A DNA stretch of 16,375 nt. It comes from a bacterium. Its GTDB lineage: Bacteria; Zhuqueibacterota; Zhuqueibacteria; Oceanimicrobiales; Oceanimicrobiaceae. Numbering within the stretch: position 1 is the first letter of the stretch; every line of letters begins with the position of its first letter. Shown piece after piece: positions 5,195-14,145 of this stretch. The position numbers and the translations under genes were made by a program. The notes beneath the pieces were generated by a model. It saw nothing but the letters and a program-made list of their open reading frames with translations. It searched no databases and had not been told where the DNA came from. The stretch covers positions 1-16,375 of the forward strand of contig JBHHXN010000118.1 in the NCBI GenBank assembly GCA_046757025.1. Reading direction: 5' to 3'.

Positions 5195-5612
5195 GGTGGT
5201 TAAATCTCCTCTATTATTAATAAAAATAATCTCATCAAAAAATGCAATGTTTATTTCCTGATTCTAAAAAGCGACGTTCCATTTTCAATAATTTTTTTAA
5301 TAATGAATGGAAAAAGTGCGAATGTGGAGCACCGTTTTTGAATGAAAATCACAACGGAATTTGTGCAAAGTCTGGTCGAAATGATTCTTACCTTAACACC
5401 ACGTAAATGTCATTGAGGAAGAATCTTTTTGTGATTTGCAAACACTTTTTTTCAGTTAGTCTTTATTTTGTTTACTGAATAGATTCCGTAACTGTGGGGG
5501 GACAATGCGGGGCTATCCTTGAAAGCGAAACCTAAACCATGAGAGACCTTAGCTTCCTGCGACCAGTTTACAAGTCGTCCAATTTTATCGGATTAAAATC
5601 GGCAGCGGCCGG

Positions 5613-6101
5613 TCACTGCAGGTAGTGCAGATATTCAGATAAAAACTCGCTGGCGATGAGGGTTTCCACCGAAAGCCAGAACAATTGCTGGTGATGAGGA
5701 AACACATAATGGGTTTGCCCCATGCCGAAACAACGGTAAATCCGCTTCCCCTGAATATCCAAATAGGTTCCTTCGATGAAAACGGAATTTTCGGGAGATA
5801 TTTTGTGGGTCATCTTTTGCCAGTTAGAACGGGCCAGCTCGGGATTGGCATAGTATGAAACGTACAGGGTGGCCGACCCCTTTTCTCCGCGGTAAAATCC
5901 TATGGCATTTTCGGGCGCCGAAACCTGTCCCAGGTGCATCTTGTCCAGGTAGGTGCTGGCTTCCTCGCCGATCATTTTTTGATGGAGTTTGAACTGATAA
6001 ATTTCCTCCGGCAGCGGGTCTGGTGCGGATGAGCAAGCGACCACCAACGTTGCCAGCCAAAGCAATTGTGTTCGTACTTTTTTCAAATTAATTCGCTTCA
6101 T
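5613..6101 (-). CDS. Hypothetical lipoprotein
   Basis: From the ATG at 6101 it has a basic N-terminus, a hydrophobic stretch and lipobox VVA-C (MKRINLKKVRTQLLWLATLVVACSS). The composition is protein-like. Confidence 0.75.
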   Translation of the reverse strand: MKRINLKKVRTQLLWLATLVVACSSAPDPLPEEIYQFKLHQKMIGEEASTYLDKMHLGQVSAPENAIGFYRGEKGSATLYVSYYANPELARSNWQKMTHKISPENSVFIEGTYLDIQGKRIYRCFGMGQTHYVFPHHQQLFWLSVETLIASEFLSEYLHYLQ

Positions 6102-6151
6102 TGAAATGCCTTCTGTCTTATTTGATGATGGAAAGCACACTAATTATAAAA

Positions 6152-6178
6152 TGTAACTTTTGTTTTAGCGCTTCGTAA
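6152..6178 (+). promoter_or_regulatory. Putative ECF-sigma promoter of the 6230 gene
   Basis: TGTAAC-N16-CGTAA matches the AAC/CGT ECF architecture (B. subtilis SigW TGAAAC-N16-CGTA). Confidence 0.55.
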
Positions 6179-6229
6179 CCTACTTTGACCTTTCAAATTT
6201 TAATATATTAAAATCATGGAGGTATTAAT

Positions 6230-6679
6230 ATGAAACCACTCATTAAATTACTGTTTATCGTTCTGCTGGCGATTTCCTTTGTACCGGTGCAAATTGGGCT
6301 GGCTAAGGAAAAAACCACAGACTGGAAGGCTTTCAGCGCTAATCTCGTGAAAGCCATTCAAACCCCAATCGACGGGCTGCAACAATCGGCCATGCAGCAA
6401 ATCATCAATTACAGCGACAATCTGGACGTGGAAGATGCGGTATTCGACATCATGCGCATTTACCGCGGCCACAAAAATTTGCATGTACGGCAGTTGGCGC
6501 TGGCCACGCTCCCTAAAACCAACAGCAATTGGGCCATCAGCTTTTTGAAAGTACTGGTGGAATACGAAGATTCGCCGGTGCTGCAAAAGCAAATTTATTT
6601 CATTCTGAAAGATGCTCGGGATGTGCAGATTGTGGACATCCCTCAAAGCGCATTGAATGAACTCTTGGCTATCAAATAG
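6230..6679 (+). CDS. Secreted hypothetical protein, alpha-helical (HEAT-repeat-like)
   Basis: GGAGG RBS and Sec signal peptide MKPLIKLLFIVLLAISFVPVQIGLA. HEAT-like segments include VRQLALATL and AISFLKVLVEYEDSPVLQ. Followed by a terminator. Confidence 0.85.
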   Translation: MKPLIKLLFIVLLAISFVPVQIGLAKEKTTDWKAFSANLVKAIQTPIDGLQQSAMQQIINYSDNLDVEDAVFDIMRIYRGHKNLHVRQLALATLPKTNSNWAISFLKVLVEYEDSPVLQKQIYFILKDARDVQIVDIPQSALNELLAIK

Positions 6680-6701
6680 CCACATATTTTGCCACCCAAC
6701 G

Positions 6702-6737
6702 AAAACCCGTCTCCCTTTTTGGGACGCGGGTTTTTTT
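6702..6737 (+). terminator. Intrinsic terminator of the 6230 gene
   Basis: AAAACCCGtcTCCC-TTTTT-GGGAcgCGGGTTTTTTT forms a stem-loop with a U tract, 23 nt after the stop codon. Confidence 0.8.
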
Positions 6738-6889
6738 ATATTACCTTAATTTTGCACATATAATGGTCAAACCCCGATTTTCCTAATTGTTAGTGGAATA
6801 TAAGTTTAATCTATTTGGTCTGAACAGCTATAGAATTATCTTCTAATTTTCAAGAACTTCAGGATTCTATAGTGCAAAATCGGGGTATT

Positions 6890-6922
6890 AAAAAAGCCGT
6901 AAGGTCTGGGACCTTACGGCTT
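6890..6922 (-). terminator. Intrinsic terminator of the putative sRNA
   Basis: Perfect 13-bp stem AAGCCGTAAGGTC (6894-6906) / GACCTTACGGCTT (6910-6922) with a 3-nt loop. The A6 run at 6890-6895 gives a U tract on the minus strand. Confidence 0.85.
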
Positions 6923-6953
6923 GACACCTCTAATGAGGTATTAATATGAAACC
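6890..6953 (-). ncRNA. Putative ~64-nt antisense small RNA targeting the translation start of the 6230 gene
   Basis: Bounded by a consensus sigma70 promoter and a terminator. The 5' end GGUUUCAUAUUAAUACCUC is the exact reverse complement of 6219-6237. Confidence 0.75.
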
Positions 6954-6959
6954 AATTGT

Positions 6960-6988
6960 ATTATACATATTTGTCATGAAATTGTCAA
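6960..6988 (-). promoter_or_regulatory. Perfect sigma70 promoter
   Basis: The minus strand has TTGACA (6988-6983), a 17-nt spacer, and TATAAT (6965-6960). Predicted +1 is near the G at 6953. Confidence 0.85.
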
Positions 6989-7316
6989 GTAAATTTACCC
7001 AAAATTGGTAAAAATATCGGGAAAGACTTTCTGGCCTTGAAATATTAACTCTGTGTTTTTTTGAGAGCATGGATTTCGGATTTGACTTTTGCCATTATTT
7101 GATGTAACTTTACACAAAATAACAACTCGAATATCCCTGAAGACGCATACACCCGCATCAATTCATTAGGCGAATAGTCTTTCCACGGTGTAATTGCCAT
7201 ACCGGTACTTTGCTTTGCTTTCACCTGACGAAACGAATATTATGAAACAAGTTCGTGATTTTTTGCATCTTTCCAGTTGTGTTGGAGTTGTCCAAATAGT
7301 CCCTCTATGCACACCA

Positions 7317-7412
7317 CTTCATGCTGAGCGCAATCCAAGCACGGCTTTTTTAATGAACTTACAACACCCTGCGACGCAGTTTATCCTGAGTTCAGCAAAA
7401 GGCTCAAGGTGA
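7317..7412. repeat. Degenerate REP-like copies
   Basis: 7317-7341 CTTCATGCTGAGCGCAATCCAAGCA matches the reverse complement of 89-113 at 22/25 positions. A further degenerate CCTGAG...AAGG unit lies at 7365-7412. Confidence 0.55.
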
Positions 7413-7587
7413 AGAAACCAGGCTTTTTGGAAAACCCCCAATCGATTCAAATAGATCGTTGGCAATTGGCCTTGATTTTTCGGTTTTTTGACGCTGACTC
7501 GGAATTCGTCACTTTTGCCGATCAACTGCTCTGTAACGGAAAACCAGGTGTTCGACAATTATTTTTAATAAAATGAAAGGAATCCCA

Positions 7588-7992
7588 ATGCCAAACGATT
7601 TTCCAGCCGCAGGTATGGAATTAACCCATATTTTAGTCACAAATAACTTTGAAAAATCCAAACATTTTTATGCGGATATTTTGGGAGCGGAGTTATTTAG
7701 GGAATATGGCGGTTCTTCAGCCGTATTTAATTTTCTGGGCAGCTGGCTCCTGATCGTCACAGGGGGCGGACCGACCGAAGACAAACCTGAGATCACCTTT
7801 GCTGCTCCCCAAGAAATCAATTCGGTCAGTCACGCCATGACCATACGCGTCCCGGACTGTCAAAAGGCGTACGAAATTTTAAAATCACGCGGAGCAGAGT
7901 TCATCACGCCGCCCGTCGATTGGGGCGCCGAGATTCGCTGCTTTTTCAGGGATCCAGACGGGCATTTACTGGAAATCAGCCAGAGCATTTGA
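7588..7992 (+). CDS. VOC family (glyoxalase/bleomycin resistance) protein
   Basis: Motifs LTHILVT..FEKSKHFYADILG, GAEFITPPVDWG and CFFRDPDGHLLEI. AAGGA RBS precedes the ATG at 7588; 7573 is an alternative start. Confidence 0.92.
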   Translation: MPNDFPAAGMELTHILVTNNFEKSKHFYADILGAELFREYGGSSAVFNFLGSWLLIVTGGGPTEDKPEITFAAPQEINSVSHAMTIRVPDCQKAYEILKSRGAEFITPPVDWGAEIRCFFRDPDGHLLEISQSI

Positions 7993-8035
7993 TAAACATA
8001 AGTTGAGAAAAACACTTCGCCTCTGATTGACCCAA

Positions 8036-13121: not shown

Positions 13122-13460
13122 TCAGCTACGGATGATTTCATTAATTCCTTCAATTATATATTCTAATTCCTCAGGGAGATACCTTACCTAATTTTTTTTA
13201 ATTCTTAAAGTTGATAAAGTTCTAATCTAACTTATTTTCACCCATGAGTGCTTTGGCAATTCCGAGGTTGATAATTCTAATGTAAGTGGGAAACCTGCTC
13301 TTTGAGGTTGACTGGTTAAGGCTAACGCAATGACAGTTCCAGAACATTCATTAAAAATATTGTTGCTAAATATTAGAACCGGTCTAAGACCAGCCTGCTC
13401 ATGTCCAATGGTCGGGTTAAAATCTGCCCAATACACCTCACCTCTCAATATTGTGGCCAT
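13122..13460 (-). pseudogene. mazF: PemK/MazF-family mRNA interferase toxin, inactivated
   Basis: N-terminus reads [25 protein letters not shown]. The same frame continues SWVKIS*IRTLSTLRIKKN*VRYLPEELEYIIEGINEIIRS to TGA at 13122-13124 (113 codons) with two internal TAG stops. Confidence 0.85.
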
Positions 13461-13687
13461 AACTCAAGATCGTGGGACAGACCTTCTTCAGCCATTGACT
13501 GTTCGAGCTCAGGATCGAATTTTGCACACTCTTTAGCCAGTCGACTTTTATCAATTCGAATTAATTTTTCTCTTACTGCTTCTTGTATGATGTTGCTTCG
13601 ATTCGGATAAACTTTCTCCTTTACAAGAAGGTCGAGTTTCTTAAGAAGTTGGCTGTCAATTGTCATGGCTACTTTTGCTGTTGACAT
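13445..13687 (-). CDS. Ribbon-helix-helix (CopG/NikR-like) antitoxin, 80 aa
   Basis: RHH pattern [19 protein letters not shown]....[14 protein letters not shown] and an acidic C-terminus. It overlaps the toxin start. GGAG RBS precedes the ATG at 13687. Confidence 0.88.
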
Positions 13688-13705
13688 CGAATTCTCCATT
13701 AATTG

Positions 13706-13724
13706 GTATGATTCATCGTCATAC
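13706..13724. promoter_or_regulatory. Probable TA autoregulatory operator
   Basis: Inverted repeat GTATGA-N7-TCATAC just upstream of the antitoxin RBS. It overlaps a candidate -10 (CTGACA-N16-TAAAGT on the minus strand). Confidence 0.55.
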
Positions 13725-14145
13725 TTTACACTTTTTAAATAAAATGTCAGTTTTATTGTCAAATTTCACGCTCGCAGGGGATTTACACCCCCATGCCTTT
13801 CTACCATGAAATTCCCTGTGAGCGACAAATTTTTACGGCACGTACTTTTTTAGTCATTTACGATCACCTCGTGATAATTGTTATTCTTTGAATCAGTTGA
13901 TACTCATTTTTTAAAATATAAGACAACTGCAGATCAAAACCAACGATATTTTTCGCTTGTTTCCAAATTAGTCAAATCACTTGGCGTATGTTTGTTTCAA
14001 CCGCAGAGAAAGTTTCCAACCCGTGTTTCGTCCAGTAACGTCCGATTGTTTTAGTTCAAACCCAATTGGATTTCCTCCCGTTTTCGACTTGATTTGTAGT
14101 ACCGCGCTTGCTCGCAACTAACAGAGGAAAATTTGGCCATCCATT

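Follow-up and report, generated by a model that had tools for sequence, protein, structure and literature searches.

The genome carrying the window (G000; the window is the whole stretch of DNA that was analysed, 16,375 nucleotides) belongs to KSB1/Zhuqueibacterota, a widespread uncultured phylum, and contains at positions 6890 to 6988 a unit that, judged from sequence, would encode a small RNA. We think it probable, at roughly 0.8, that this RNA acts in trans and without Hfq to repress the translation of inducible genes, most of them envelope genes. Like units were found in 11 other genomes of two other families (f6 and f10) and on 3 metagenome contigs, which with that of G000 gives 15 units. 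They would form a real, undescribed sRNA family, a candidate with named predicted targets, sequence-level controls and unusually good sequence evidence for both targets and seed switching. A literature search, which covered main texts and for the most part journals outside subscription, gave no description of a regulatory RNA in KSB1/Zhuqueibacterota or of such a design.

The features of the locus are the following.

6152 to 6176, plus strand: ECF-sigma-type promoter motif TGTAAC-N16-CGT upstream of the 149-aa gene, present at 3 of 2001 SD-bearing G000 starts.
6219 to 6238, plus strand: predicted target site, made up of the SD, spacer, ATG and codons 2 and 3 of the 149-aa gene (pairing over 19 bp at -29.8 kcal/mol, second among 4580 starts).
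6230 to 6679, plus strand: gene of a 149-aa protein with a signal-peptide-like N terminus and weak HEAT-repeat similarity, the predicted target.
6702 to 6738, plus strand: intrinsic terminator of the 149-aa target gene (stem 6708-6726).
6743 to 6886, no strand: multi-copy inverted-repeat element, MITE-like, about 145 nt, between the two terminators and outside the RNA.
6890 to 6922, minus strand: intrinsic terminator with a 13-bp stem (6922-6894) and a U tract.
6890 to 6953, minus strand: predicted small RNA of about 64 nt, with the +1 expected at 6953 or 6954.
6924 to 6941, minus strand: 7-bp hairpin holding the anti-SD, by fold prediction.
6935 to 6954, minus strand: 5' seed (anti-AUGAAACC, spacer, anti-SD), the exact complement of the starts of the gene at 6230 and of a gene on contig C162.
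6946 to 7011, plus strand: ORF of 21 codons that overlies the promoter and is regarded as a by-product; its counterparts in other members lack conservation past MK.
6960 to 6988, minus strand: sigma-70 type promoter TTGACA-17-TATAAT, 12 of 12 consensus positions.

The initial annotation had proposed this arrangement of promoter, copied gene start and terminator downstream of a separately terminated target mRNA, and all these parts were recovered. The 20-mer GAGGTATTAATATGAAACCA lies at 6219-6238 and again at 6935-6954, and none of 200 shuffles gave two matches, even allowing 3 mismatches. Identity between the two copies stops at 6954, which is the expected +1 of the promoter, the sole 12/12 site among 7 sites found in 5500-8000. 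In the predicted fold of the 64-nt RNA (-29.7 kcal/mol, z -8.1), 12 unpaired bases, the first 12 nt of the seed, are followed by the hairpin covering the anti-SD and then by the terminator. The unit thus has its own promoter and terminator and lacks a conserved ORF, as is expected of a trans-encoded base-pairing sRNA. It had also not been recognised as a described RNA family; no Rfam covariance model matched at E<=1 in the window or in 8 member loci, and among the described families MicF, RybB, IstR, OrzO-P, SymR, IhtA and others gave no covariance-model match for the unit. In the DNA runs of one study (n=4) positions 6890-6988 were unchanged in all, which adds little.

The 149-aa protein matches HEAT_2 at an E of 0.078, below the cut-off, and neither it nor the DxDGDG and lipoprotein targets described below fell into a Pfam or NCBIfam family. 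Its homologues are present in 22 of 101 genomes. At none of the 23 other homologue loci with a called start is the start region repeated over more than 10 nt within about 1.5 kb, and related units occupy other gene contexts than that of G000. The linkage between the RNA and its 149-aa neighbour is lineage-specific and not conserved. From the proposal of a linked but trans-acting repressor, the linkage therefore falls away as a general trait, and a trans-acting, seed-first antisense RNA fits best. Seed covariation with the target RBS was likewise not seen at the homologues' own loci (0/23); it exists with other, unlinked genes.

Further repeats and genes were noted in the window. A palindromic, REP-like repeat with the core CTTCATGCTGAGCGGAGTCGAAG lies at 86-125, 913-952 and 7317-7341 and on many G000 contigs. 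At 13227-13762 there is what we take, from the look of the sequence, to be a ribbon-helix-helix-like antitoxin ORF followed by a MazF/PemK-like ORF, apparently shortened (77 aa).

When the seed was paired with 4580 SD-bearing G000 starts by RNAduplex, whose energies exclude target accessibility, the best start was that of the C162 gene (-29.9), followed by the 149-aa neighbour (-29.8); the next-ranked starts, on C54, C206 and C28, reached -22.6 to -22.0, and the mean was -8.7. The C162 gene is unlinked, has a third exact copy of the 20-mer at its start (G000:C162:9735) and encodes a protein of at least 653 aa with a signal-peptide-like N terminus, CBM9 and DUF5916. A 16-nt copy lies at C206:2373, at the start of an AhpC-TSA gene. 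The suggestion that the seed may hit other secreted-protein genes is thus borne out exactly for C162 and in part for the gene starts on C206, C28 and C54; the C162 and C206 copies had been missed by the initial annotation, as had the 6743-6886 element and the 21-codon ORF. On the other side, 3 of 40 control seeds found a further start whose energy lay within 1 kcal/mol of that of their own site. When target structure was taken into account, pairing gained a net -16.3 kcal/mol at the neighbour and -9.4 at C162, and the latter is inside the tail of 300 background starts, the best of which reach -11.2.

The units, that of G000 included, are distributed over 12 genomes in 3 families, in f6 over 6 of 14 genomes spanning four genera and in f10 over 5 of 19, all of one genus (g28); the member genomes are kin and not independent. 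No member was found in the 20 other genomes of the family to which G000 belongs, and a BLAST search of 21 family genomes with the unit as query returned short matches only. An architecture pattern run over 167 phylum genomes gave 6 matches, of which, besides G000, one (G089) had a terminator. A two-sequence model then applied to 150 genomes returned G035, G053, G056 and G040 (E 3e-5 to 3e-4) and G050 (E 0.13), a ten-sequence model run on 125 class genomes weakly matched G082 and G061, whose units turned out to belong to the family, and a pattern search added G088, G032 and G042. The single-sequence model R1 recovered no member. Model R3 gave G082 and G061 weakly (E 0.10 and 0.15) and missed G088, G032 and G042, so the distribution is a lower bound. 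No unit was found in G025, G030, G058, G067 and G007. Loose patterns matched mostly gene starts or terminators, and one of them recovered known f6 units and no new one. Strict-pattern scans of sequence collections gave 7 viral, 15 genome and 30 metagenome matches, among which 0, 1 and 3 were family members; the three metagenome members are f6-type, and the f6 seed was absent from the viral contigs.

All units have a common order of sigma-70 type promoter, 6-7 nt, TTTCAT-N5/6-AYCTC, GCCG..CGGC stem and U tract, with a length of 63-65 nt. Promoter position and spacing are the same in all family members, the TTTCAT-spacer-AYCTC string begins at about +3, and the GCCG..CGGC stem base is common to all 15 units. 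The common-order motif has a single match in G000, where about 0.19 would be expected for the RNA motif alone, with the promoter uncounted. What is kept is UUUCAU (anti-AUGAAA) and A(C/U)CUC (anti-SD); the spacer between them varies, being ATTAAT in G000, GGTAAT and GGTGAT in f10 and GGTGG in f6, where a 19-nt seed at +1 is invariant in 6 genomes of four genera with differing gene contexts. The toehold with an anti-SD hairpin, also part of the first proposal, is predicted in G000 and, with a hairpin ending in GGUGU, in 4 of 5 f10 members; it is not predicted in f6 members, and the toehold design is therefore not general.

Units of similar appearance were seen elsewhere. L182, L192 and L197 (about 4001, minus strand) are promoter-seed-hairpin-terminator units outside KSB1 whose spacers are GGCAC and AGCGC and whose leader similarly leaves 12 nt free; their contigs are short and showed no strong target. 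Other anti-RBS promoter-hairpin units are L193:970 (minus strand), L196:602, L101:1501 and L143:2501; for the L193 seed, a gene start located on its contig gives a pairing of -28.4, and the L143 unit has no second exact spacer in its genome. In G089 and G050, L369:1057-1155 and L371:607-712 are small-RNA-like units with promoter and terminator and different 5' sequences. At L137 and L138 (about 1501) terminator-like stems adjoin TGAGGAGGAG, whose opposite strand is a C/U-rich anti-SD run before a terminator; these stems are possibly another sRNA family.

The seeds pair over about 15-22 nt with genes of their own lineage, for a DxDGDG protein, a Spy/CpxP-like chaperone and a response regulator; complementarity to separately encoded mRNAs thus appears to be conserved, a trait of trans-encoded base-pairing sRNAs. 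In G089 the unit spacer CCACC is the only repeated spacer among 63 sites and occurs in the unit and at two gene starts, those of a lipoprotein and a response regulator. None of the remaining five f6 genomes contains an exact (non-wobble) 13-mer target; in 5 of 5 of them the DxDGDG orthologue (163-168 aa, signal peptide) pairs with the f6 seed by G-U wobbles only, at -31.9 to -33.3. The DxDGDG protein gave no match in G089, which is 85% complete. In G025 and G030, two genomes that yielded no unit, its homologues reach only -20.4 to -24.6 (3/3), and none of the 4580 G000 starts reaches -28.5 with the f6 seed. Response regulator genes pair at -28.6 to -34.5 in G089, G056 (two genes) and G035, the genomes to which the protein search was confined. 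The DxDGDG genes belong to an unnamed secreted family of about 165 aa with a sigma-54-type promoter (L273, L274, L286, L289, L294 and L374-L376), and calcium binding by the repeats is possible.

In f10, pairing of the Spy/CpxP-like gene with the seed of its own genome gave -28.5 to -35.5 in all five g28 genomes; the Spy-like orthologue in G058, where no unit was found, gave -20.6 to -23.6. In G042 an altered anti-SD is matched by a target change in the Spy-like gene, giving 22 unbroken bp. Foreign starts that reach -28.5 with f10 seeds number 1-2 per genome, and single f10 sites are therefore weak evidence. In G061 and G088 the Spy start has a slight preference for the G042 seed over its own, and the G042 lipoprotein pairs better with the G061/G088 seed. 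The 149-aa homologues in G082 and G032 reach only -22.3 and -20.6. Orthologues in genomes without a found unit pair worse than own-lineage targets.

It is possible, though rather unlikely, that the unit is a real pairing RNA whose main outcome is something other than ribosome occlusion, such as duplex-triggered mRNA decay or stabilisation, or that the G000 unit arose independently by copying its neighbour's start and merely resembles the f6 and f10 units. A duplex of 19 bp has a length at which OrzO requires RNase III (PMC3919570); against a different outcome, the duplex covers SD and AUG in every case. A search of G000 with short motifs gave no RNase III signature, and such a search is no evidence of absence. 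As to independent origin, profiles built without G000 matched the full-length G000 unit at an E of 0.69 (f6) and 0.18 (f6 and f10), at ranks 2 and 3, and did not find it when given the RNA part alone; the unit lies 700 bp from one exact target; and G000 shares no strong target with f6 or f10, tblastn recovering neither a DxDGDG nor a Spy homologue and the G000 counterpart of the f10 lipoprotein target pairing at only -16.8. Terminator covariation was modest on alignment A7, where G000 is misregistered. On the other side, G000 shares with G089 features outside the search that found G089 (CTTGACAATTTCA, ATGAGGT, AAAC and AAGCCG..CGGCTT) and with f10 ATACCTC, GGTGT and the hairpin, and the f10 seeds are intermediate between those of G000 and f6. 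Homology of the G000 unit to the f6 and f10 units is likely, and is not significant by sequence score alone.

We consider it very improbable that the unit is an inert or chance duplicate of an AT-rich ribosome-binding site beside a mobile element. The MITE-like element does adjoin it, with 4 other copies in G000 at 92-93% and 3 weaker or partial ones; its arms form the inverted repeat I12, and public contigs have loose ends at 6742-6743 and 6886 and vary among themselves. Unrelated secreted-protein genes may also share start regions, since 16 nt were common to 9 non-paralogous groups among 4267 called genes, and look-alike promoter-seed strings arise by chance in other phyla. However, a 20-nt window was common to 0 non-paralogous pairs in the same control, where the C162 start was miscalled, and the 14-nt core GAGGTATTAATATG occurs four times in G000, in the unit and at three gene starts, and not at all in 166 other phylum genomes. 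The spacer ATTAAT is found at 4 of 124 GAGGT-N4..7-ATGAA sites (rough post-hoc p 6e-7), among which two 4-nt spacers appear twice, and three out-of-phylum look-alikes had no second copy of their own spacer. Among the short-ORF copies of gene starts in G000, no other comes with a strong promoter and terminator. An inert duplicate is rejected, as it leaves unexplained the three matching starts and the conservation of promoter, seed and terminator in 12 genomes.

Least probable of all is a type I toxin-antitoxin locus in which the RNA is the cis-antisense antitoxin of a 21-aa peptide read from the 6946 ATG (plus strand). As in symE/SymR (PMC4147584), the antisense promoter is overlapped by an SD, which could sit hidden in a plus-strand hairpin, by an ATG and by an ORF that is mildly hydrophobic. 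This ORF is, however, unconserved (9-37 aa in f6, 6 aa in f10, no conservation after MK), has no Pfam match and is not accompanied by any conserved small hydrophobic toxin, the targets being proteins of 121-650+ aa; the linkage of RNA and target is not kept, and the matches to unlinked genes are left unexplained.

The targets of the putative repressor carry promoter motifs that give them an inducible look. The DxDGDG genes have TGGCAC-N5-TTG upstream in 8 of 8, which we take to be of the sigma-54 type, and the Spy-like genes CCAAC-N16/17-CGT in 6 of 6. Two of the three G000 starts with TGTAAC-N16-CGT are those of the two exact targets; a looser motif occurs at 32 of 2001 starts, and 12 of the 22 genes homologous to the 149-aa gene retain it. 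The AAC..CGT motifs resemble ECF promoters listed in PMC6180224. As a set, ECF-motif genes pair with the seed no better than others (p 0.20), and therefore the seed picks members, not the regulon. The ECF-type promoters of the targets have a candidate source at 207-1628 of the window, where an ECF sigma factor, a sigma-like ORF that is truncated and a STAS protein stand in a row. Hfq (PF17209), on which an envelope sRNA of the MicF/RybB type would depend in its host, was found in 0 of 5 genomes (85-96% complete), with the control positive in 5 of 14. This fits the long pairing; according to the authors of the work on IhtA, RNAs that do without Hfq tend to have larger pairing regions (PMC4355289).

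The RNA would probably be transcribed constitutively, and its first 19-20 bases would pair with SD, spacer and start codon of several separately encoded mRNAs, which would likely block ribosome loading without Hfq. The free 12 nt at the 5' end may nucleate on AUGAAACC, after which the anti-SD hairpin would open and the SD be covered. The family keeps the anti-SD and the anti-AUGAAA, elements common to most secreted-protein starts; specificity would be set by the 5-6 nt spacer, and therefore two or three substitutions would re-aim the RNA. The weakest step of the proposal is that the RNA would likely act as a threshold: inducible envelope genes would have their basal transcripts silenced until induction titrates the RNA out; this is put forward because the main targets carry ECF- or sigma-54-type promoter motifs and the RNA looks constitutive. 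Taken further, and here we see the odds as even, KSB1 may possess a naturally programmable, chaperone-free antisense scaffold of 64 nt whose anti-SD and anti-start-codon ends are fixed and enclose a 5-6 nt address that reads the SD-AUG spacer as a barcode; changes of address would have moved the RNA between entirely different regulons (ECF- and sigma-54-type) in three families, and genes would join by spacer match. If true, natural sRNA retargeting could be traced, which is otherwise hard because seeds are short, and a minimal Hfq-independent silencer would be available for engineering. With pairing over 15-22 nt, a 5-6 nt address and five seed variants with cognate and non-cognate targets, retargeting is directly testable. 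SD-AUG spacers, usually treated as a matter of length only, may act as regulatory addresses.

The unit would work like OrzO, IstR-1, IhtA and MicF/RybB but is a member of none of these. MicF, MicA and RybB-type enterobacterial sRNAs are stress-induced and Hfq-dependent, and with a 5' seed they block, by short imperfect pairing, the translation starts of envelope-protein mRNAs, the terminator being a 3' scaffold. The unit has in common with them the predicted 5' seed, the envelope-protein mRNA starts and the terminator as scaffold, and differs in its sigma-70 consensus promoter, the lack of an Hfq hit, near-perfect long pairing and the absence of an Rfam match. OrzO (zorO-orzO) has 18 nt of complementarity, acts with its 5' end and is Hfq-independent (PMC3919570), and IstR-1 (tisB-istR) has 21 nt of complementarity (PMC4147584); both are, in these accounts, short type I antitoxin RNAs beside a target gene, linked and non-overlapping like the unit. 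Their target, by the same accounts, is one small hydrophobic toxin, whereas the unit would address several secreted and signalling proteins of 121-650+ aa and its linkage is not conserved; IstR-1 moreover binds far from the RBS, in contrast to the predicted site on SD and AUG. SymR covers the RBS and start codon (PMC4147584) but is encoded opposite its target, while no conserved gene lies opposite the RNA described here. IhtA of Chlamydia trachomatis is trans-acting and Hfq-independent, occludes the start codon and has more than one target (PMC4355289); by that account it uses a 6-7 nt loop with no SD pairing, whereas the KSB1 RNA is predicted to use its 5' end, with 15-22 bp over SD, spacer and AUG.
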